A stretch of 64,000 nt of DNA from Klebsiella phage Magnus (NC_049462.1); one strand, 5' to 3'; positions 27,574-51,720 are shown, numbered from the stretch's first letter. Notes: generated from the sequence alone by a model not told the origin. Numbers and translations: made by a program.

Positions 27574-27601
27574 AACCCCGCCATGTGCGGGGTTTTTATT
27601 T
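27574..27601 (+). terminator. strong rho-independent terminator (aaaccccgcc-atg-tgcggggttt + ttattt)
   Basis: Perfect GC stem plus U-run after gp23. Confidence 0.7.
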
Positions 27602-40177: not shown

Positions 40178-41062
40178 ATGACAACTACATTTAGTAAGAA
40201 CGTGAGACTGAATCTGGCTTTTGGTAATGCTAAAGGGGACGTAACCGCCCCCGACTTTAGCAAAATTCGCAATCAGGCGAAACTCGTGTTGGAAGAAACC
40301 AAAGAACTCCTGGAAGCGGCGTATTTTGACCATGACGTTGTTGTCAATTTCCAGGCCACTCCAAAACCGAGTAACAACGAAATATATTCTGACCCCAATG
40401 CCAAAGTGAATGCTATGCGCCTCATTATGGATTCCCAGGGCGATATCACAACGGTCAACGACGGCGTGGCTCACATCGCCGGTTTCGACGGCAACGAATG
40501 CTTGCAGCGTGTCTACACGTCCAATATGAGCAAATTCATCCGTTCTGAAGATGAAGTCGGTCCGGCGCTGGATTATTACTATTCTCGCGGTTTCCCGGAA
40601 GGCCAGCTGCGTGTTGAAGGTGAATTCCCTCAGGCATGCATCAAGGTCAATGAGACCGTGATGTGGAACGGCAAAGAATATCCGGCGAATAAATTCCTGA
40701 AGAACATGGCCGTCTTCCAGGAACCGGATTTCAGTGATATGCTGACGAGTACTCCATTACAACAGGTGAAAGCCATCATCGCCAGCAGCGTTGTTGAACC
40801 GGGTAAAGCGTACATCGATAAAGAGAATGGTGTCGCTTACTTCCACATCAACGACCTCCGCCAGTTCCTGGAAACTTCTGCGGGGTTTGGTACGACTCAA
40901 GAACTGGCTAATGTAGATGGCCAGACTGAGAGTTATGTCCCGGTCTACCATGTTAGTGATGATTCGTATCCGGAACTGAACGGTTATTGGGCTGCTAACG
41001 TTCGTGTGTTCGTCTACTCCCCATACAATCCGGAAGTCACGCAGCTGACCCGTATCGATTAA
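40178..41062 (+). CDS. conserved hypothetical protein (294 aa)
   Basis: ORF at the position where T4 has the DNA polymerase gene. No confident motif. Confidence 0.5.
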   Translation: MTTTFSKNVRLNLAFGNAKGDVTAPDFSKIRNQAKLVLEETKELLEAAYFDHDVVVNFQATPKPSNNEIYSDPNAKVNAMRLIMDSQGDITTVNDGVAHIAGFDGNECLQRVYTSNMSKFIRSEDEVGPALDYYYSRGFPEGQLRVEGEFPQACIKVNETVMWNGKEYPANKFLKNMAVFQEPDFSDMLTSTPLQQVKAIIASSVVEPGKAYIDKENGVAYFHINDLRQFLETSAGFGTTQELANVDGQTESYVPVYHVSDDSYPELNGYWAANVRVFVYSPYNPEVTQLTRID

Positions 41063-41133: not shown

Positions 41134-42363
41134 ATGAAAGATAAACCGTCAGACATCCAATATTGCGGTGTCCGTGAAGATAAAATCAAAACAGCTGATC
41201 CTGTCCTCAGCCCTTTCCATCGCAAGCTGTCCTATGATTGGATGAATGAACGTTACAAAATCCACGTAAGAAAGGACGTCCAGAGTCTTCCTGCTCCCTG
41301 GACGGAAAATGAGATACTACGGCAGGTCAAGTTTTGTAACGTCCGGAGAGAGCACGACAGGCAGTCTCAGCACCTCATCCGGAATATCGTTGATAATAAG
41401 AACCTGACTCTGGCGGACAAGATGTTCAACTGCCTTCTGTTCCGTATGTTCAATATGTGGGATCCCATCCAGCATGTTCTAGAAGGTCCGGTCTCCATCA
41501 ATGATTTCCGTAATATCAATTTGGACCGAACTCGTGAACGATTTGCGGACTTTGACAAAAAAGGCGGCGTGACGTTCACTAATGCTTTCAACACAGGCGG
41601 CTTGAAGCAATGCCTGGCTTTTCCTGAACTGGCCGTGACTGGTAAGCCAGCCAGCCCCAGCAAAATGATGGTGAAAGTATTTGAGAAAGAAGGGCCGATG
41701 AAGTTTTATGTCGGGGAAATGAAATACAAAGATGCCAAGACTCTGGCCGAAGCAAATCCGGAAACAGTTGTGATCGAAGGCTGGGAACCGCATATGGGAA
41801 TGCGTGTTGTCCGATTCCTGAAAGCGTTTGTTACCCATAATCCTCATTTCTTCCATGCGTTGTTGGGGTTCAATTCACCACTATCTGTTTATGAAGAACT
41901 GCTTAACAAAGTTGAAGGCCTCGGTCCATTCTTGGCATATCAGATTTGGGTTGACTTCACATACAATCCGGATTATCCGTTCAGTGAAAACCATTTCACT
42001 ATCGCCGGGCCGGGGTGCCGCGCCGGGATTGATCTGTTGTTCCTGGACAAAGATGGTATGACCCACGAAGAGTGTATCTTCTGGCTCCGTGATAACCAGG
42101 ATCAGGTCTACGGGCAATATGGTTATGTTCGTGAACAATTCTGGTCGGCTGAAGCACCGGAAGATCAATGCATGAACGTCATGCAGCTGGAAAATATGTT
42201 CTGTGAACTGAGCAAATATACCCGTTGTGTCGAGGCTGTCATGCGTGGTGAGAAGCCTCGTGGTAAGGTTGGATATGACGGAAGCGGCGATTATAAAAAG
42301 CGTTGCGACGAAGTTGTTCTCAACCGTGGTTCTGTCAATCTTCTGGAAAGGATGAAGAAATGA
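41134..42363 (+). CDS. conserved hypothetical protein (409 aa), Cys/His-containing; candidate DNA-metabolism or base-modification enzyme
   Basis: Long ORF. No recognisable P-loop. Any function is inference only. Confidence 0.5.
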   Translation: MKDKPSDIQYCGVREDKIKTADPVLSPFHRKLSYDWMNERYKIHVRKDVQSLPAPWTENEILRQVKFCNVRREHDRQSQHLIRNIVDNKNLTLADKMFNCLLFRMFNMWDPIQHVLEGPVSINDFRNINLDRTRERFADFDKKGGVTFTNAFNTGGLKQCLAFPELAVTGKPASPSKMMVKVFEKEGPMKFYVGEMKYKDAKTLAEANPETVVIEGWEPHMGMRVVRFLKAFVTHNPHFFHALLGFNSPLSVYEELLNKVEGLGPFLAYQIWVDFTYNPDYPFSENHFTIAGPGCRAGIDLLFLDKDGMTHEECIFWLRDNQDQVYGQYGYVREQFWSAEAPEDQCMNVMQLENMFCELSKYTRCVEAVMRGEKPRGKVGYDGSGDYKKRCDEVVLNRGSVNLLERMKK

Positions 42364-42700: not shown

Positions 42701-44731
42701 ATGTCAGATTTTAAACCCTTCGCAGTTGCTGTAAAGAATCAAATCACCGCGATGTCCAGCAATGGCCTGTACATGACTTCGGTTGACAAAGACGCCCTGT
42801 GGGATCTGTATCTGTCGTCTTTCCCGGAAGGCACCAACAACATCTACCGTGAGCGCACCGAGCACGATTGCACCTGCTGCAAGCAATTCATCCGTAATAT
42901 CGGCGGCGTCGTATCGATTGACGCTGATCTGAACCTGGTCACTGTGTGGGACAGTGTTAATCTGGGCAACGAATATGACGTGGTGGCAGCGGCGCTGGCC
43001 AAGTATGTCAAGCAGCACAATATCGTGGGCGTATACTTCAACGATTCGTCTAAAGTCGGCGTTGAAAGCAACCATGAAATGGGTGAAAACGGTAAAGTCC
43101 GCACCTACAACCATTTCCACGCAACGCTGGAAGGCAAATTTGTTCTCCGCGCCGATACTATCGCATCCAGAAAAGGTGAAATCTGGCAGTCGATTGAAGT
43201 CTTTGAGCGCGGGTTGCGTGAACTGACTCTGGAATCGGCTGAGATCGTACTGGAACTCATCGACCAGAACTCCCTGTATCGTGGCGAAGAGCATCGTGCT
43301 GCTATCCAGAGCTTTATCCAAAGCAAAAATGAATACGCACAAATTCCGTCGACTCTGAAACAACTCTGGGCTTGGCGTACTGGCTGGATGTCGAATAACC
43401 ATAAGCCGTTCGGCATCCGAAATAACGTCATCGGCACGTTATTAATCGATCTGTCTGGTGGCGTGGATCTGGAAAAGGCGGTTAAGTCATTTGAAACCAA
43501 AGTGGCACCGACCAACTACCGCCGCCCGACTGCTCTGGTGACTAAGGGTATGATCGAGCAAGCGCAGAAAAAAGTTGCTGAACTCGGCCTGACCGACTCG
43601 CTCGGACGCCGCTTTGCCACCTACGACGACCTGACCATCAACAACGTTCTGTTCGCTGATTTGGCTGCGCAGAAGGCGATGGATCCGTTTGCCCAGCTGG
43701 CTCAGGAAGTGAAAGTGTCGGAGAAATCCCTGGGTAAAATCGAAGAGATCAGTGCCGACGACTTTGTCAAAAACGTACTGCCGAAGGCGCATTCTATGGA
43801 AGTCCTCTTTGAGGGTTCCCATACTGGTAATCTGATGTCGTTGGTGGCACCGCAAACTGCAGGCGCACCTGGCCTCTTCAAATGGAATAACAACTTCTCC
43901 TGGTCATATAATGGTGAAGTTGCCGATTCCATCAAAGAGCGCGTGAAGGCCGCTGGCGGTAATGTGGATTCGTTCCTGCGTGTGTCTCTGGCCTGGTTCA
44001 ACAACGATGACCTGGACCTGCACATGTATACACCGCAGCGTGAACATATCTACTTCCACACTCGCGAATCCCGTTCTACGGGCGCCAAGCTGGACGTTGA
44101 TATGAACGGCATGGATGGTATCAACGCAGAACGCAAGCCCGTTGAGAACATCTTCTTCAGCGATGAAAGCAAGCTGAAAGACGGTGTGTATCAGTTCGTG
44201 GTGGACAATTATAACCAACGTGAAACTATCGACACCGGGTTTATCATCGAAGTCGAATACAAAGGTGATCTGAAGCGCTATTCCTGCGAAAAAGGTCTGA
44301 AGCAGAAACAGCAGTTCGCGGTAGTTGAACTTCATGTCAAAAATGGCAAAGTCGTTGACGTTCAGACTCCACTGACGCCGACTGCTGGCGTTGAGACTGA
44401 AGTATGGGGCATCCGTACACAGAACTTCCAGAAAGTGCAGCTGGTTCTGAACTCACCGAACCATTGGGATGGTGAACAGACAGGCAACCGCCACTTGTTC
44501 TTTATCCTGGAAGGCTGTGTGAACCCGGTCGGAACCCGCGGATTCTACAACGAATATCTGAAGCCGGAACTGGCACCGCATGGTAAGGTTTTTGAAATGC
44601 TTGGCGCTAAAATGAAAACAGCACCAAGTGATAACCAACTGAGCGGCCTGGGCTTCTCTTCCACTCAGCGCAACCATGTTCTGGTGAAGGTAAGTGGCTC
44701 GTTCAACCGTGTAGTCAAAGTCGTCTTTTAA
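42701..44731 (+). CDS. large conserved hypothetical protein (676 aa)
   Basis: Long ORF preceded by the leader box 'TGAAACAGGAAGACTATA'. No recognisable catalytic motif. Confidence 0.55.
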   Translation: MSDFKPFAVAVKNQITAMSSNGLYMTSVDKDALWDLYLSSFPEGTNNIYRERTEHDCTCCKQFIRNIGGVVSIDADLNLVTVWDSVNLGNEYDVVAAALAKYVKQHNIVGVYFNDSSKVGVESNHEMGENGKVRTYNHFHATLEGKFVLRADTIASRKGEIWQSIEVFERGLRELTLESAEIVLELIDQNSLYRGEEHRAAIQSFIQSKNEYAQIPSTLKQLWAWRTGWMSNNHKPFGIRNNVIGTLLIDLSGGVDLEKAVKSFETKVAPTNYRRPTALVTKGMIEQAQKKVAELGLTDSLGRRFATYDDLTINNVLFADLAAQKAMDPFAQLAQEVKVSEKSLGKIEEISADDFVKNVLPKAHSMEVLFEGSHTGNLMSLVAPQTAGAPGLFKWNNNFSWSYNGEVADSIKERVKAAGGNVDSFLRVSLAWFNNDDLDLHMYTPQREHIYFHTRESRSTGAKLDVDMNGMDGINAERKPVENIFFSDESKLKDGVYQFVVDNYNQRETIDTGFIIEVEYKGDLKRYSCEKGLKQKQQFAVVELHVKNGKVVDVQTPLTPTAGVETEVWGIRTQNFQKVQLVLNSPNHWDGEQTGNRHLFFILEGCVNPVGTRGFYNEYLKPELAPHGKVFEMLGAKMKTAPSDNQLSGLGFSSTQRNHVLVKVSGSFNRVVKVVF

Positions 44732-44766: not shown

Positions 44767-45138
44767 ATGTTTGATAAAGCAACCCGTCTGAAACTGCGTT
44801 TCAACTCCAACAAAGGCATGCTGTCCGTTGAGCAGGTGTGGGATCTGAGCCTGACTGCTCTGAACGAAATGGCGAAAGGTCTGAACCGCGAACTGAAAGC
44901 TGCTGCGGTTGACGATGAAGATTTCATCGGTAACAATACCGCTGTTGATTCTCAGCTGCAACTGCGCTTTGACATCGTCAAAAGCATCATCAGCACCAAG
45001 CTGAAAGAGCGCGACGACACCCTGTCCGCTGCAGAAAAACGTGAGCACAACCAGGCCATCCTGGAACTCATCAAGAAGAAACAGCAGGAAGAGCTGGCGG
45101 GCAAATCTGTTGAAGAACTGCAAGCCCTGCTGAAATAA
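44767..45138 (+). CDS. hypothetical helical protein (123 aa); its 3' end is the upstream copy of the 27-bp direct repeat
   Basis: ORF. The C-terminal 'SVEELQALLK' is encoded by the repeat. Confidence 0.5.
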   Translation: MFDKATRLKLRFNSNKGMLSVEQVWDLSLTALNEMAKGLNRELKAAAVDDEDFIGNNTAVDSQLQLRFDIVKSIISTKLKERDDTLSAAEKREHNQAILELIKKKQQEELAGKSVEELQALLK

Positions 45139-45161
45139 ATCCGTCAACTCCGGTATTAACA

Positions 45162-45186
45162 ACCCCGCCCTGTGCGGGGTTTCAAT
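45162..45186 (+). terminator. terminator aaccccgcc-ctg-tgcggggtt + tcaatttg (upstream copy of the duplicated terminator)
   Basis: GC stem plus T-rich tail. Near-identical to the terminators at 47789 and 27574. Confidence 0.6.
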
Positions 45187-45236
45187 TTGTGTATCGCAGT
45201 ATAATACATATGTAAACTAAACTATGGGGCTACGTT

Positions 45237-46091
45237 ATGTTTCGTTTGAGATTGAACGACCAAGATGTGTTCTACAAACACTTCACCTTTCCGGGCGGTG
45301 AGGAACATATCAAGATTCAAAAGGCGGGTATCCCTGTTGGTAAAATCCAGACAGTGGTAATTGACGCCCACATTAAATCGTCAGCAGACTTCATTGAGCT
45401 GGCACTGTTGGTGAATGCCGTGCGCGGCCTGGGTAATGTCGACCGACTGACAACATTTCATGCTTATATCCCTTATTTTCCATATGCCCGTCAGGATCGT
45501 CATTGCGACTTTGGTGAACCTCTTTCGGTGAAGTGGGCAGCAGAGTTCATCAATAGTATGAACTTTGACCGTGTGGCTATCAAAGACCCTCACAGCCATG
45601 TTGTGTCTTCTTTGATCAACAACGTCCATGTTGTCCCGCAAGATTACATTGCTCGCCAGTACCTGGGATGGTTCATCCGTGGAAACAACGCTGTGTTAGT
45701 AGCCCCTGACGGTGGCGCGGCGAAGAAGACTGAAACCCTCAGCCTATCGCTGGATGGCGTTCCTGTTGTCTACGGACATAAGAACCGCGACACCAAGACA
45801 GGCGAGATCATTGGGGTGAGTATTACAAACCCTGAACTGATCAAAGACCGCTATCTGGTTGTGGTAGATGATATCTGTGACGGCGGGCGAACGTTTGTTG
45901 AGCTGGGCAAAGAGCTTCAGAAGCACGAGCCTAAGCACATGACCCTCTTCGTTACCCACGGCATTTTCAGCAAAGGCCTCTCTGTGTTCGACGGGATCTA
46001 CGATGCTGTGTATGCCGACACTGTCTGGTGGGAGAACATCACTGCCGACGGTCTTCCATTCAAAACTGAAAATACAGGACGTGTAAAATGA
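45237..46091 (+). CDS. ribose-phosphate pyrophosphokinase (Prs) family protein; candidate ADP-ribose pyrophosphokinase (Adps) of the NARP1 NAD+ reconstitution pathway
   Basis: 'IPYFPYARQDRH' vs E. coli Prs 'IPYFGYARQDRR'. 'VVVDDICDGGRT' vs 'VLVDDMIDTGGT'. 'VTHGIFSKG' vs 'ATHPIFSGN'. Confidence 0.65.
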   Translation: MFRLRLNDQDVFYKHFTFPGGEEHIKIQKAGIPVGKIQTVVIDAHIKSSADFIELALLVNAVRGLGNVDRLTTFHAYIPYFPYARQDRHCDFGEPLSVKWAAEFINSMNFDRVAIKDPHSHVVSSLINNVHVVPQDYIARQYLGWFIRGNNAVLVAPDGGAAKKTETLSLSLDGVPVVYGHKNRDTKTGEIIGVSITNPELIKDRYLVVVDDICDGGRTFVELGKELQKHEPKHMTLFVTHGIFSKGLSVFDGIYDAVYADTVWWENITADGLPFKTENTGRVK

Positions 46092-47740
46092 GCATGCGCC
46101 ACTTAGATCCAATCCATGCAATCGACTTCTACAAATCAGGGCACATCTATCAATTTCCTGAAGGTAGCGAGCTGGTGTTCTCCAACGGAACTCCACGCTC
46201 CAACAAACTGTTCAACTCCCACCTGCCGAAGAACGGCGTGGTGGTCTGGGGTATCCAGGGCTTCATGACCTGGTTCCACGAACTGTTTGATGAAGCGTTC
46301 TTCCAGCGCCCAAAGGCCAAGGTGCTGAAGAAGTATGCCCGTCGAATGAACAAAGTTCTCGGACCAGGCCGCGTTGGGACAGAGCATATCGAAGCCCTGC
46401 ACGACCTCGGCTACCTGCCTATCGAAGTCCGCGCTCTACCCGAAGGCACCATGTGCCCGTATGGTGTTCCAGTATATGTGATGTTCAACACCTTGCCGGA
46501 GTTCTACTGGCTGACCAACTATCTGGAGACGGTGTTCAGCTCTGAGATCTGGAAGCCGATGACGAACGCAACCATTGCCCTGCATTACAAGGCGCTGATG
46601 GTGAAAGCCGCTATCGCTACAGGCGTGTCGCCGGACCATTGGTTCATCGACTACCAAGGCCACGACTTCTCCTTCCGTGGTATGAGCGGGTGGCATGACG
46701 CGGCGTCTTCCGGTTCTGGCCATCTGGTGTTCTTCAAAGGCACCGACACCAACCCTGCCCTGGACTTCGTTGAAGAGTATTATGGCGCGGATATCGATGA
46801 AGACTATGTCGTTGCTGGCTCTGTTGCAGCCACCGAACACGCCGTGATGTGCATGGGCACGAAAGATGGCGAATTCGAAACCTTCCGCCGCCTGGTACAG
46901 GACGTGTATCCTGATGGCATCGTCAGTATCGTTTCTGATGCATGGGATTACTGGCAGGTCATCGACGACTATCTGCCGCGCCTCAAAGATATCATCATGG
47001 CGCGTAATGGCAAAGTTGTGATCCGCCCCGACTCTGGTGACCCAGTGCATATCGTCGGTGGTTATCGCGTCGAAGAATTTTGCAATGAGCAGGATTTTTA
47101 CGATAACGACCCACGTGAAGAAACTGAAGTTATCTATCTCAAAGAAGAAAACAGATACCATATTCTGGAACAATATCAGTTTAATCAGATCGGGGAAGAG
47201 ATTTCTCGTTCAGAAGCGGTCGGTTCTATCCAGCGCCTATGGGAGATCTTTGGCGGAACCCAGACCGAAACGGGCCACTTCCTGTTGGATGAGCATATCG
47301 GCCTGATCTACGGTGATTCCATTACCCTGAGCCGTGAAGATCAGATCTTTGCTCGTCTGGCTGAACGTAATTTCGCTTCCATCAACGTAGTGTTCGGTAT
47401 CGGTTCCTATACTTACCAGATGAACACCCGTGATAGTACCGGGACGGCGGTGAAAGCAACGGCTGGGAAGGTCAACGGTGAATTCCGTGAGATTTTCAAA
47501 GAACCGAAGACTGACAAAGGTGGTACGAAGAAATCTGCGCGTGGTTTCCTTAAAGTCATTAAAGACTCTCAGGGTAAACTAGTGTTGGTTGACGGTATCA
47601 CCTTTGATCAGGTGCAAGACGCCGACAACCAGCACCAGCTGGTGTATCGTGATGGCAAGTTCTTCAACACCCAAACTCTGGAAGAAGCGCGTTTTCGTGC
47701 CGCTCCTCTGGTGGAAGAATTGGCATCACAAATATGTTGA
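46088..47740 (+). CDS. nicotinamide phosphoribosyltransferase (NAMPT/NadV) family protein; candidate Namat of NARP1
   Basis: 'DFYKSGHIYQFP' is the DSYK-type N-terminal motif. 'RPDSGDP', 'IYGDSI', 'FGIGSYT' and 'KKSARG' match NAMPT 'RPDSGNP', 'IQGDGV', 'FGSGGGL' and 'KKGR'. ATGA overlap with the Prs-like gene. Confidence 0.75.
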   Translation: MSMRHLDPIHAIDFYKSGHIYQFPEGSELVFSNGTPRSNKLFNSHLPKNGVVVWGIQGFMTWFHELFDEAFFQRPKAKVLKKYARRMNKVLGPGRVGTEHIEALHDLGYLPIEVRALPEGTMCPYGVPVYVMFNTLPEFYWLTNYLETVFSSEIWKPMTNATIALHYKALMVKAAIATGVSPDHWFIDYQGHDFSFRGMSGWHDAASSGSGHLVFFKGTDTNPALDFVEEYYGADIDEDYVVAGSVAATEHAVMCMGTKDGEFETFRRLVQDVYPDGIVSIVSDAWDYWQVIDDYLPRLKDIIMARNGKVVIRPDSGDPVHIVGGYRVEEFCNEQDFYDNDPREETEVIYLKEENRYHILEQYQFNQIGEEISRSEAVGSIQRLWEIFGGTQTETGHFLLDEHIGLIYGDSITLSREDQIFARLAERNFASINVVFGIGSYTYQMNTRDSTGTAVKATAGKVNGEFREIFKEPKTDKGGTKKSARGFLKVIKDSQGKLVLVDGITFDQVQDADNQHQLVYRDGKFFNTQTLEEARFRAAPLVEELASQIC

Positions 47741-47788
47741 AGAACTGCAAGCCCTGCTGAATAGCCAGCTGCCTTCGGCGCGATAATG

Positions 47789-47812
47789 AACCCCGCCATG
47801 TGCGGGGTTTAT
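47789..47812 (+). terminator. terminator aaccccgcc-atg-tgcggggtt + tattttagg (downstream copy)
   Basis: GC stem plus U-run. Confidence 0.65.
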
Positions 47813-48204: not shown

Positions 48205-48957
48205 ATGTCTAACAGAACTGGTATTAAACTCAATCCAGAAATCCTTAAATCCCATATCGCGGAAGTTATCTATGAAGACCGCGAAGTGGGAGGGCATCGT
48301 GTTATCACTTGCCATTTGAAAATGGATAACGGATTTGTCGTTTGGGGAAAGGATAGCTCAACATCTATTGACCCCAAAAATTTCGATGAAGAATTGGGCA
48401 AGAAATTGGCATACGATAAGACTTTCTCTCAATTGTGGGAACTGGAAGCATATCGGGCTATGGTTGTCCAAGATTTCATTGGTAAGACAACTGAAGAACC
48501 GTTTATAAAACTTGAAGATTATATTGAAGAAAGTAAGACAATGCAAGTATCCGGTTGGGACTATCGGAATGGTGTAGCCACCGCATATTCTATTAGATCA
48601 ATTAAAAGAAGTAAATTTGGATTGTTGGATTACATCAGCATTTGTCTTTACAAAACTGATAATAAAAAACATGATGATATCAATAATTCGAAAGAAATAC
48701 AGAAAGCAAAGGATTTCATCAGATCTTATATGAATCACACTGAAATTAATAGCCAGTTTGTAATTCATATCGCAAAACTTTGTTGGGCTGCTCGGTCAGC
48801 GGTTGTGGACACTACACCTTCTTGGGAAGATTCTAAAGAAACAGATCGCCAAGATATGTGCGAAACGGTTAAAAAATTACTGTTATCCCCCAGCGATTAT
48901 CAACCAAAAGATAATTTGTTGAAATTGTTTTGGGCGATTGTGTCCCAATTCCGATAA
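48205..48957 (+). CDS. hypothetical protein (250 aa), AT-rich
   Basis: ORF abutting the upstream stop codon. Confidence 0.5.
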   Translation: MSNRTGIKLNPEILKSHIAEVIYEDREVGGHRVITCHLKMDNGFVVWGKDSSTSIDPKNFDEELGKKLAYDKTFSQLWELEAYRAMVVQDFIGKTTEEPFIKLEDYIEESKTMQVSGWDYRNGVATAYSIRSIKRSKFGLLDYISICLYKTDNKKHDDINNSKEIQKAKDFIRSYMNHTEINSQFVIHIAKLCWAARSAVVDTTPSWEDSKETDRQDMCETVKKLLLSPSDYQPKDNLLKLFWAIVSQFR

Positions 48958-49385: not shown

Positions 49386-49529
49386 ATGGATTCCTGTCTA
49401 TTAGATCCCGAGAACGTTCTTGTGGTTGAAATTGAAAACAACAAGCCGTTCATTTTGAAAATGTTGGAGAAGGATAATAATCCTGAAACCAATCCTAAAC
49501 TATCCCAAAAGGGGAATAACGATGATTGA
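49386..49529 (+). CDS. small ORF (47 aa) overlapping the vWA gene start by 8 nt
   Basis: SD 'gagg'. Not in the ORF track. Confidence 0.25.
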   Translation: MDSCLLDPENVLVVEIENNKPFILKMLEKDNNPETNPKLSQKGNNDD

Positions 49530-51720
49530 ATCATTAGAATTTAAGAATGCCACACAGACGGTTGCTCCTTCCAATCACGTCATCGTCGTTGACATTTCTT
49601 ATTCCATGTGCTATGCGCTGCCGAAACTGCGCCAGCACCTGAAAGAAAACCTGCCCTCTCTGGTTAAGCCGGAAGACACCATCAGTATTCTGTACTTCTC
49701 TTCTCGTGGCGACTTCGGTACTGTGTTCGCTGGGCGCCAGGTCAGAAACGCATCTGACCTGAGTGAGCTGGGCAAACTGATCGATCGCTTCCTGCAACCG
49801 ACGGGCTGCACCGGATTTGTTGAGCCGCTCAAGCTGGCTATCGAAACCGCCAACGATCTGAAAAAGTCCGGCGTCATCAATTCCCTGGTGTTCATGACCG
49901 ACGGCTATGACAACTGCTGGCGTTCCAGTGAAATCCTGGCCGTTGCTGAGCAGCTGCCAAAAGCATACGACAACATCACCCTGATCGAATACGGCTGGAA
50001 CTGCAACCGCGAACTGCTGCAGAAAATGGCTGAGTGCTCTGGTGCAACCCATGTATTCGCCGAAGGCCAGGAAGAATATCAGACCGAACTGGAAACAGCG
50101 ATGGTTTCTGTCGCTCCGCGCGTTCGCGTTGATTTCAGCGTCATCTATTCCTATGCCGTTTATATCGAAAACGGGATTCCGACCATCCTGGCCGCCCAGT
50201 CTGATGAAGACCATCCTATCAATTACGTCAACATCCCTGAGAGCGTCTCTAAGCTGTGGGTTGTTGATCCTGATATGATCGACCAACTGGATAACCTGGC
50301 GGACGTTGAAGCGGCATATGTGCTGGCTCTCTTTGGCGTGCATACTATGGATGCCGACCTGGTGTGGGCCGCGCTGAAAAAGACTGGCGATGTGCGCTTC
50401 ATTAAACAGTACACCAACTGCTTCACCAAGCAGGATTATTCCAACATCAAAACTGACATTACAGCAGCGATTGTAGACCCGGCGCTGCGCGGTGTGGACG
50501 GTATCGATTACAATCTGGTGCCGCCGGAAGACGCAACTACTGTTGTTGATGTTCTGACTTACCTGGCGGGAGCAGACGCACAACTGGTTGTTGACCATCC
50601 CCTGTTCTCTTACAAGCGGATCGGTCGCGGTACGGTACAAAAAGCCGACGATACCGAAGACAAGCTGGCGGCAGAAATTGCCGAAGCCAAATCTAAAGAA
50701 GAGCGTAAAGCGCTGGCCCTGAAACTGGCTGAACACGAAGACTGGACTCCTGTGTTTGAGCCAGTGAAAGGCGCGGGCGTTCCCATCAGCAATCTGGTTT
50801 ACAACTCCGCCCGCCCGAACATCAGTCTGCAGACTGTGCAAAACGGGACCGTCATCATTCCGAAGTTCGCCCAAAAGAAATACGATCTGCCGGAATCTAT
50901 TGACACATGGCAGTGGAAGAACTACACCATCGTCAAAGACGGTATCATCCATATGAAGACCCTTCCTGTGGTCTGCTCGGCTGAAACCGTATCTGAACTG
51001 GTTAGCAAAGGCGTTGAAGTTTACGGCGGGCCGGAAGTGTTCATCGTAAATCTGGGCAGCGTTCCTCTGGTTAACCGCGCGATGGTTAAGAACATCAGCG
51101 CCGCGCAGTTCTTTGCTGACCATGTCCGTCTGGAATCCCTGAAAGCCAAGCAGAAGGTTCTCAAATACTTCCGTGACGAACTGGTTGGGAAAGGTAATGC
51201 CGTGGGCCTGGCGGGCAAATACGGTGCCGAAGCGGCTGAGTTTCTGTCTGCGAATGGCATCCGCGATTACGGCTTCTCTCCGAAGACCGCTTCGGTTGAG
51301 TCTACTGATTTCTACATGAGCCGCGAACTCAATGTGAAGATCAAAGGCGCTTCCTCTCTGCCGTCAATTGCCGCCGTTCTGAAGAAACAGGCAGACAACA
51401 AAAAGCTGAACGCAGCTGATCAGCTGATCGCTAATGCGCTGGCAGAATACAACGCCTTTGTCAAATCTCCGGCGGTGACTGCAGTCCCGGAAGCAACGCA
51501 GGCCAAGATCATTGAATCTTGGATCAGTGACGCTGCCAAGGCCGCAATCACCCAAGTGCGTGAGCTGAACAAGACCCTGTCCAAATCCCTGTATGCCATC
51601 GTTGCTGGCCATGGCTGGTTCACCGACCTGGATCTGGAAGAGTCCACCATGGAAGTGGAAGTTGACGGTGTGAAATACACCGTCAGCGCAGTGCTGGAAG
51701 AGAAAGAGATCAAAATCTAA
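49522..51720 (+). CDS. von Willebrand factor A (vWA) domain protein, 732 aa, with a large uncharacterised C-terminal region
   Basis: The N-terminus has a MIDAS-type 'VVVDISYSM' (DxSxS) motif, then a downstream Thr and 'MTDGYDN'. Confidence 0.6.
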   Translation: MIESLEFKNATQTVAPSNHVIVVDISYSMCYALPKLRQHLKENLPSLVKPEDTISILYFSSRGDFGTVFAGRQVRNASDLSELGKLIDRFLQPTGCTGFVEPLKLAIETANDLKKSGVINSLVFMTDGYDNCWRSSEILAVAEQLPKAYDNITLIEYGWNCNRELLQKMAECSGATHVFAEGQEEYQTELETAMVSVAPRVRVDFSVIYSYAVYIENGIPTILAAQSDEDHPINYVNIPESVSKLWVVDPDMIDQLDNLADVEAAYVLALFGVHTMDADLVWAALKKTGDVRFIKQYTNCFTKQDYSNIKTDITAAIVDPALRGVDGIDYNLVPPEDATTVVDVLTYLAGADAQLVVDHPLFSYKRIGRGTVQKADDTEDKLAAEIAEAKSKEERKALALKLAEHEDWTPVFEPVKGAGVPISNLVYNSARPNISLQTVQNGTVIIPKFAQKKYDLPESIDTWQWKNYTIVKDGIIHMKTLPVVCSAETVSELVSKGVEVYGGPEVFIVNLGSVPLVNRAMVKNISAAQFFADHVRLESLKAKQKVLKYFRDELVGKGNAVGLAGKYGAEAAEFLSANGIRDYGFSPKTASVESTDFYMSRELNVKIKGASSLPSIAAVLKKQADNKKLNAADQLIANALAEYNAFVKSPAVTAVPEATQAKIIESWISDAAKAAITQVRELNKTLSKSLYAIVAGHGWFTDLDLEESTMEVEVDGVKYTVSAVLEEKEIKI

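Follow-up and report, generated by a model that had tools for sequence, protein, structure and literature searches.

We describe here two adjacent genes of Klebsiella phage Magnus (NC_049462.1) that very probably form a NAD+ reconstitution pathway 1 (NARP1) operon; all positions refer to the 64,000-nt stretch that was analysed, called the window from here on. A mechanical list of open reading frames (ORFs) gives two intact frames with ATG starts on the forward strand, one of 284 aa that is Prs-like (45237..46091) and one of 550 aa that is NAMPT-like (46088..47740), and this is exactly the span 45237-47740 for which an earlier note on this DNA had proposed a two-gene Prs-like plus NAMPT-like module. 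The first gene, adps, is predicted to encode an ADP-ribose pyrophosphate synthetase resembling phosphoribosyl pyrophosphate (PRPP) synthetase (PRPS), which would convert ADP-ribose (ADPR) and ATP to ADPR pyrophosphate (ADPR-PP) and AMP. The second, namat, is predicted to encode a Nampt-like nicotinamide ADP-ribose transferase that would convert ADPR-PP and nicotinamide (NAM) to NAD+ and pyrophosphate. The motifs quoted in the earlier note (PYARQDR, VVVDDICDGGRT, DFYKSGH, RPDSGDP and FGIGS) are all found in the translations, and the ATGA overlap that it reported was confirmed: the junction reads gtaaaATGAgc, where the adps stop TGA (46089-46091) overlaps the namat ATG (46088-46090) with 4 nt shared, and an AGGA is present at 46076-46079, 9-12 nt before the namat ATG. 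The two genes are translationally coupled via this ATGA overlap. In the operon leader (45200..45229, forward strand, read off the sequence) a TATAAT lies at 45200-45205 and a GGGG ribosome-binding site (RBS) at 45226-45229, 8 nt 5′ of the adps ATG, and the annotation of phage Menlow puts an RBS at the matching place. A consensus sigma-70 scan upstream of adps gave nothing above the shuffled background, the lone TATAAT hexamer being all that was found, so that a promoter of the operon at this place is putative. Both coupling and RBS are kept in the phages Menlow, May and allotria, and the operon is bracketed by two near-identical terminator-like hairpins (45161-45182 and 47789-47810).

The locus belongs to a Klebsiella phage of the Ackermannviridae, genus Taipeivirus. 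Its 2.5-kb segment is 97-98% identical to those of the Klebsiella phages UPM 2146, FKP10, Menlow and 0507-KN2-1 (all Ackermannviridae) and ~89% identical to those of Salmonella Kuttervirus phages of the same family, and the 284-aa protein is 100% identical to a protein of Klebsiella phage phi1_146021. In the GenBank records of relatives the two products are labelled 'ribose-phosphate pyrophosphokinase' and 'nicotinamide phosphoribosyl transferase'. Compared with the orthologues of Kuttervirus and Taipeivirus-may, adps has a ratio of nonsynonymous to synonymous substitution (dN/dS) of 0.03, and namat one of 0.02-0.03 outside one variable loop; strong purifying selection thus keeps both genes across genera. 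Our reading, to which we give a probability of about 0.9 on the sequence evidence set out below, is that the two genes make up a NARP1 operon of the minimal kind (adps-namat), carried by a Klebsiella phage of the Ackermannviridae. What the two enzymes do, and the part they play against host defence in this lineage, are inferred by analogy with the characterised systems.

NARP1 was defined by Osterman et al. on the basis of genes 79-80 of phage Bas63 and the operon of phage SPbetaL1. According to the proposed scheme, a host NADase effector of the SIR2, TIR or SEFIR type would cleave NAD+ to ADPR and nicotinamide. Adps would then move the beta-gamma pyrophosphate of ATP onto the 1″ hydroxyl of ADPR to give ADPR-PP, and Namat would swap this pyrophosphate for nicotinamide to give NAD+ directly, such that neither a nicotinamide mononucleotide (NMN) intermediate nor an adenylyltransferase would be necessary. 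NARP1 would in this way cancel abortive infection by NAD+ depletion, and since its substrates are the products of the SIR2, TIR and SEFIR NADases, the pathway would act only after immunity fires. Osterman et al. found that Adps of SPbetaL1 yields ADPR-PP from ADPR and ATP and makes no PRPP, that Namat forms NAD+ from ADPR-PP and nicotinamide with ADPR-PP preferred over PRPP, that Bas63 counter-defence is independent of host pncC and nadR, and that no phage has both NARP1 and NARP2.

The 284-aa protein matches Pfam Pribosyltran_N and Pribosyltran, the domain pair of ribose-phosphate pyrophosphokinases, as well as PHROG 619 (E=6e-91). It was aligned with the Adps of ICP1, Bas63, SPbetaL1 and FADO, two more phage homologues and E. 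coli Prs (MG1655 genome). The identities were 33% to ICP1 Adps, 33% to Bas63, 29% to SPbetaL1, 24% to FADO and 24% to E. coli Prs. A hidden Markov model (HMM) of Adps was built from 70 Adps-like ORFs extracted beside Namat genes in uncultivated viral contigs, and the Prs comparators were E. coli Prs taken from the genome together with B. subtilis and human Prs sequences. On the Adps HMM the 284-aa protein scores 270.7 bits and three characterised Adps score 236-246 bits, as against 134-142 bits for E. coli, B. subtilis and human Prs; on a three-sequence Prs HMM it scores 75.9 bits, where Adps proteins span 61-84. None of the NCBIfam Prs models reaches its cut-off with this protein; TIGR01251, for instance, gives 106.5 bits against 113, and the Prs equivalog models give 50-95 bits against cut-offs of 296-536.

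The residues give the same picture. The shared catalytic set is present (R85, H119, D158, K182, R184, D211 and D212), and the set of ICP1 Adps (R87, H121, D161, K185, D212 and D213) corresponds to R85, H119, D158, K182, D211 and D212 here. A 2026 structural paper on ICP1 Adps names the features that make a PRPS fold an ADPR pyrophosphokinase, the signatures being the PP loop, which is the remodelled ATP-donor site, a beta-hairpin, and the absent C-terminal helices alpha11-alpha12 (PMC13586617). The catalytic beta-hairpin (residues ~180-196, GHKNRDTKTGEIIGVSI, 45774..45824, forward strand) includes KNRDTKTGEII, in which Lys182 is the catalytic residue corresponding to ICP1 K185 and SPbetaL1 K162, both essential by mutagenesis, and T188-G189 and I191 are Adps-specific. 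Among the 70 Namat-linked Adps these three states occur in 51 (T), 67 (G) and 52 (I) cases, where Prs has A/P, N and S/A/V. The PP loop DDICDGGRTF (residues 211-220, 45867..45896, forward strand, placed by alignment) is identical to that of Bas63 Adps, and its C214, G216 and F220 are found in 63, 60 and all 70 of the 70 sequences, the Prs states being I/A, T and L/I. At every discriminating position (T188, G189, I191, C214, G216 and F220) the 284-aa protein thus has the Adps state. It is also shorter at both ends, with a tail of 39 aa past the THGIFS motif (59-64 in Prs) and 17 aa ahead of the conserved Phe at the N-terminus (34-40 in Prs), and by these sequence lengths the C-terminal alpha11-alpha12 module and the allosteric elements of regulated PRPS are predicted to be lost. 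It may be noted that F18 and R85, equivalent to the adenine contacts Phe18′ and Arg87 of ICP1 Adps, are present here, but they are present in Prs too and do not discriminate. The best PDB matches are canonical PRPS at no more than 67 bits, with ICP1 Adps compared by sequence alone. By profile and residue states, the 284-aa protein would group with the characterised Adps, apart from canonical Prs.

The 550-aa protein matches Pfam NAPRTase (E=3e-32), NCBIfam NF006629 (475 bits, cut-off 405) and PHROG 448 (E=3e-194). Its top PDB matches are 9W5X and 9W5W at 457 bits, which are SPbetaL1 Namat with nicotinamide and with NAD+ (PMC12774641), and human, rat and mouse NAMPT reach ~177 bits. The second-best Namat match, 9KE8/9KEO (357 bits; GAQTYQRNTRD), is of untraced origin and was left out of the evidence. 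In the alignment the protein is 48% identical to SPbetaL1 Namat, 46% to Bas63, 46% to ICP1, 31% to KVP40 NadV and 29% to human NAMPT. The catalytic core of SPbetaL1 (D13, Y15, F189, R192, D215, H245, R306 and D308) corresponds to D13, Y15, F194, R197, D220, H251, R313 and D315 here; mutation of R306, the equivalent of Arg313, abolishes NARP1. All the NAM-, ribose- and phosphate-contacting residues of SPbetaL1 Namat are conserved, and the Namat-specific residues S195, T249, S411, S440, Y441, T442 and Y443 are present.

The selectivity clamp of Namat consists of a helix with the motif GS-X-Phi1-X-Phi2-X-Phi3-TRD, bearing adenine-stacking aromatics, and a variable loop (PMC12774641). The selectivity-clamp helix (SCH) here reads GSYTYQMNTRD (residues 439-449, 47402..47434, forward strand) and fits the published Namat consensus at 10 of 11 positions, including the aromatic Y441; the equivalent segments are GSYTYQYMTRD in Bas63, GGGLLQQLDRD in KVP40 and GGGLLQKLTRD in the human enzyme. 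In the selectivity-clamp loop (SCL), the third position is by rule occupied by Arg, Lys or Tyr, and with Lys the following residue stacks on the adenine (PMC12774641). This beta1-beta2 loop is RSNKLF here (residues 37-42, 46196..46213, forward strand), with Lys40 at the third loop position and the same length and type as RSDKWF of Bas63. By identity and PDB score, the 550-aa protein is nearer to the characterised Namats than to the Nampt enzymes that prefer PRPP.

Gene linkage was followed in the wider family through a sample of 80 listed IMG/VR loci with Namat relatives (43-51% identity), which contained no Ackermannviridae contigs. Among these listed matches an Adps-like gene is found within 4 kb in 71 of the 80 loci, usually immediately upstream, and seven of the remaining 9 had less than 2 kb of upstream flank; a NatV homologue was found in the flanks of none of the 80. 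NARP1 pairing is recognised where the two genes share an operon or lie no more than ~10 genes apart, and here they overlap by 4 nt. We also searched for the enzyme that a route through NMN would need. KVP40 NatV and the NadD and NadR of E. coli served as tblastn queries against the 64-kb window and against the full genome sequence of phage cp21 (OX335403.1, 160.5 kb), whose Adps and Namat are 99.3% and 99.6% identical to those of the window; the best hit had E=0.2 and none carried an (H/T)xGH motif. The operon neighbours are without an NMN adenylyltransferase (NMNAT) domain on Pfam search, so the absence of such a gene beside the operon, as the earlier note had it, holds. The Klebsiella phages listed as NatV carriers all have ~175-kb genomes and are not Ackermannviridae. 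With no NMNAT found in either the window or the complete cp21 genome, NARP2 is excluded at tblastn sensitivity.

Of the accessory genes known from larger NARP1 forms, a Macro domain gave no match among the operon neighbours at Pfam E<=5 and no tblastn match in the window. A RyR/RyDEP domain was considered for the downstream 250-aa ORF (48205-48957) and rejected, as Pfam gives only an N-terminal Gp49/Sf6-gp66 match there, even at E<=5. Because it is without the Macro-domain Adpp and RyDEP, the operon would be of the minimal NARP1 form. The operon agrees with every NARP1 feature that can be read from the sequence except at one minority-state clamp residue, and it lacks the features that define canonical Prs, NARP2 and the three-gene NARP1-AP.

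Some observations weigh against the NARP1 assignment. Position 7 of the SCH is Met445, a non-aromatic minority state, where SPbetaL1 has the adenine-contacting Tyr396. The same Met occurs in 5 of the 80 viral Namat relatives mapped, among the matches listed, and is not the Lys/Gln of Nampt; the Met-bearing unrelated viral contigs have Adps-like genes within 4 kb in those identified, Met445 is conserved across Taipeivirus and Kuttervirus, and in SPbetaL1 the single change Y396K causes just a ~1.3-1.7-fold loss in vitro (PMC12774641). In the first enzyme the adenine contact Phe92 of ICP1 is replaced by Cys90, yet Cys is the commonest family state (31 of 70). The nearest characterised enzymes come from outside the Ackermannviridae and are just 33% (Adps) and 48% (Namat) identical. 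SPbetaL1 Namat still forms NMN from PRPP in vitro, such that a side route via host NadR/PncC is possible. Lastly, aRES makes ADPR-1″-P and occurs in K. pneumoniae, and since the operon is without the Macro-domain phosphatase Adpp, it should fail against aRES-type NAD+ cleavage.

In a first rival explanation, a true PRPP synthetase and a true Nampt/NadV make NMN and host NadR/NadD (or PncC with NadD) convert it to NAD+, a classical salvage that would resemble NARP2 with the adenylyltransferase borrowed from the host. The names in database records, Pfam, NCBIfam and PHROG are all those of ribose-phosphate pyrophosphokinase and nicotinamide phosphoribosyltransferase, the residues needed for PRPP catalysis are all in place, and SPbetaL1 Namat is able to form NMN in vitro. 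We nevertheless consider this explanation quite improbable. The 284-aa protein fails every NCBIfam Prs cut-off, is without the N- and C-terminal elements of regulated Prs and has the Adps donor-site states, while the 550-aa protein has the Namat clamp and not the GGGLLQ of the PRPP-preferring KVP40 and human enzymes. Also, SPbetaL1 Adps formed no PRPP and Bas63 counter-defence needed neither pncC nor nadR. According to Osterman et al., a KVP40-type Nampt is accompanied by an Nmnat in 94% of the phages that have one, and none was found here in the searches described above.

According to a second rival, the module boosts nucleotide and NAD+ pools for replication (DNA synthesis, ligase, hypermodification) independently of host immunity. 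Its location agrees with this, as the surrounding region is one of replication and nucleotide metabolism (MazG-like pyrophosphatase, 5-hydroxymethyldeoxyuridine (5-hmdU) DNA kinase, clamp loader and helicases), and with NARP2 the NAD+ level goes up even where no defence system is present (Osterman et al.). But ADPR-PP was seen in Bas63 infection only with an active NADase system, and the pathway requires free ADPR, which is scarce unless NAD+ is cleaved. The module is also dispensable, as seen from a Limestonevirus remnant and an Ag3 fusion described below, and this better fits an accessory arms-race gene than core metabolism; the pool-boosting role is accordingly rated as highly improbable. 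That the operon is a decaying or inactive remnant in this lineage, as the deletions in sister genera, the M445 clamp deviation and the fast-evolving Namat insertion could suggest, is hardly credible given that neither ORF is truncated or lacks a catalytic residue, that dN/dS is 0.02-0.03 across genera, that Menlow, May and allotria keep the ATGA coupling and the RBS, and that M445 recurs in unrelated viral Namats with Adps-like genes nearby in those checked.

Returning to the NARP1 reading, one of the closest known systems is that of Bas63 (Escherichia phage JohannRWettstein, Felixounavirus; genes 79-80), which also has adps followed by namat and an enterobacterial host. Its PP loop DDICDGGRTFVE is identical to ours, its SCL is of the Lys type and of equal length, and its Namat has a large insertion at the matching site after RPDSGDP, ~35 aa longer than the one here and of unrelated sequence. 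The two systems differ in that the proteins are 33% (Adps) and 46% (Namat) identical, the Bas63 genes are 45 nt apart whereas those here overlap, and SCH position 7 is Tyr in Bas63 and Met here. Bas63 is supported by a deletion phenotype and metabolite data, and the operon here by its sequence. In the Bacillus phage SPbetaL1 the gene order is the same, the genes overlap or abut, and its Namat is the best solved-structure match. Its SCL, however, is 4 residues shorter with Arg40 stacking, there is no insertion after RPDSGDP, and the PP loop of its Adps (29% identical) is DDLSSFGGTF, of the Gram-positive subtype. ICP1 Adps (Vibrio phage), for which an apo crystal structure and cryo-electron microscopy substrate and product complexes are available (PMC13586617), is of similar size (280 against 284 aa) and has in common with ours a PP loop that opens with DDICDG, a hairpin with TG(D/E)I, the Lys needed for catalysis and the alpha11-alpha12 loss; its lid residue Phe223 is Glu222 here.

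The NARP2 of Vibrio phage KVP40 (NadV/Nampt with NatV/Nmnat-Nudix) likewise restores NAD+, and its second enzyme is in the same Nampt superfamily. Unlike the enzyme here, KVP40 NadV is PRPP-preferring, has GGGLLQQLDRD instead of the Namat clamp, is without a Prs-like neighbour and is partnered with Nmnat. The NARP1-AP of Vibrio phage Gary has the order Adps-Adpp-Namat, with its Adps 37% and its Namat 44% identical to ours over the tblastn-aligned regions. The mycobacteriophage DyoEdafos NARP1 with RyDEP has the same Adps and Namat core, and no RyR-domain gene is present in or beside the operon here.

The earlier note had preferred NARP1 and had proposed a profile comparison with characterised Adps/Namat and Prs/NadV; that comparison sides with Adps and Namat, and the Adps states, profile scores, Namat clamp and linkage all support the preference. 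Its further remark that the sequence alone could not distinguish NARP1 from Prs plus NadV no longer stands, as the signatures published in 2026 do separate the two and the proteins carry the NARP1 states. Nor is the module a new candidate. A protein differing by one residue is row 1 of the 'Adps homologs' in Supplementary Table 1 of Osterman et al. (Klebsiella phage 0507-KN2-1, 'Namat within 10 genes: Yes'), and the module is therefore already known through near-identical orthologues catalogued in the paper that defined NARP1. The Adps of 0507-KN2-1 (I for L) and of Menlow are each 1 aa away from the 284-aa protein; Menlow and UPM 2146 are also in that table with 'Namat within 10 genes: Yes', and the Menlow orthologue is a leaf of the tree of Osterman et al. 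A 2024 review of the Ackermannviridae ties the family's genes for NAMPT and for ribose-phosphate pyrophosphokinase (RPPK) to Osterman et al.

The analysis thus adds no new biology, and its value lies in supporting, at the level of sequence, Taipeivirus and Kuttervirus phages as predicted carriers of a module that counters immunity by NAD+ depletion (Thoeris I, DSR1/2, SIR2-HerA, SEFIR, Kongming and SPARSA). Many of these phages are candidates for Klebsiella and Salmonella phage therapy. The GenBank annotation, which implies Prs/NadV salvage, can be corrected, and for host range one would predict better plating on strains with ADPR-producing NADases together with probable aRES sensitivity. The module has been gained, moved and lost within the family, so its presence is to be checked for each phage. 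Minor leads are the variable insertion, an unlinked Macro gene, a rearrangement and recurrent deletions, which are described in the remainder of the text.

The Namat insertion (residues ~326-377, 47063..47218, forward strand) lies just after RPDSGDP, at a family-wide insertion hot spot, and is missing in the aligned SPbetaL1, ICP1, KVP40 and human proteins. The spacing from RPDSG to LWxxFGG is 66 aa here, and in 70 viral relatives it varies between 24 and 105 aa. Across the family up to ~80 additional residues, or none, are inserted at this site. Ackermannviridae alleles of Namat with a full-length identity of 91-93% are ~35% identical in the insertion (judged by eye on the alignment), and dN is 0.62-0.70 in the insertion as against 0.009-0.02 for the remainder of namat. 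The insertion was exchanged, or else it evolves at ~50 times the rate of the remaining Namat, and either recombination or diversifying selection could account for its hypervariability. In view of this insertion, of the Met in place of an adenine-stacking Tyr and of an unlinked Macro protein in close relatives, one may speculate that the Ackermannviridae version is more than plain NARP1, with the insertion diversifying in response to some host factor by which Namat is sensed or inhibited, or with NARP1-AP split in trans. We consider this unlikely; if a split NARP1-AP were true, protection would extend to the aRES-type NAD+ cleavage found in Klebsiella. In phage cp21 a 201-aa Poa1p-like Macro ORF (63837-64442, minus strand) is unlinked to NARP1 and is 28% identical to Gary Adpp (pairwise E=1e-14). 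A functional tie of this ORF to NARP1 is conjectural, because the Poa1p-like Macro family is widespread, with over 2,300 phage records that include T4 (Tk.4).

The operon is flanked by an imperfect direct repeat of ~82 bp. The left copy (45102..45182, forward strand) consists of the last 37 nt of the gene at 44767..45138 (which ends in SVEELQALLK and a stop), a divergent spacer, and the terminator-like hairpin AACCCCGCC-CTGT-GCGGGGTTT at 45161-45182 on the forward strand. The right copy (47729..47810, forward strand) consists of the last four Namat codons with the stop (CAA ATA TGT TGA), a spacer, and the hairpin AACCCCGCC-ATGT-GCGGGGTTT at 47789-47810 on the forward strand, which is likely to be the operon terminator. 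A third hairpin copy, AACCCCGCCATGTGCGGGGTTT, is present 20 kb upstream at 27574-27595 and is identical to the hairpin after namat, which suggests that a terminator element is reused in this genome. The two repeat copies and this further hairpin copy are the sole exact repeated 20-mers of the window. Two copies of the ~82-bp repeat are found in Menlow and cp21 and one in phage May. At the Namat-side junction there is a CAAAT microhomology, by which the C-terminus changes from ...SQI to ...SQIC before the stop.

The order of the genes also differs between relatives. In the window NARP1 is followed by the repeat, a DUF3268 gene and a Gp49-like gene, whereas in May and Salmonella phage allotria the DUF3268 gene and the Gp49-like gene precede NARP1, and in Dickeya phage Ds23CZ the Gp49-like gene is upstream of a NARP1 remnant. 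Given the order in May and allotria, the Gp49-like placement in Ds23CZ and the duplication of the repeat, the cassette has moved in this lineage, with the window arrangement being the derived one. The DUF3268 gene, which encodes a zinc-finger-domain protein of 125-128 aa (47818/47828-48204, Pfam E=3e-40) directly after the operon terminator, is absent from the otherwise collinear Menlow and cp21, where 24 bp stand in place of ~400 bp; in May it is upstream of the Gp49-like gene. Two in-frame deletions are seen in sister genera. In Limestonevirus (Ds23CZ) a 110-aa in-frame remnant is left, in which the first six codons of Adps run on into the final ~105 of Namat. In Shigella phage Ag3, which has a row in Supplementary Table 1 of Osterman et al., a different in-frame deletion joins residues 1-222 of Adps to a Namat that begins near residue 229. 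The remnant and the fusion indicate that the module is accessory and has been lost repeatedly. PHROG 12872 matches both proteins of the window because it was built on the Ag3 fusion.

Among the other genes around the operon, a 676-aa conserved ORF (42701-44731, PHROG 1735) lies upstream and a 732-aa conserved ORF (49522-51720, PHROG 2426), called 'vWA-containing' in one relative, lies downstream, both with no Pfam match. No tRNA genes and no Rfam families at the gathering threshold were found in the 64-kb window. Located 3-5 kb upstream are the genes for a MazG-like pyrophosphatase (40178-41062) and a 5-hmdU DNA kinase helical-domain protein (41134-42363; PF18723, E=4e-80), which together represent a thymidine hypermodification and nucleotide-metabolism block as in ViI-like phages.

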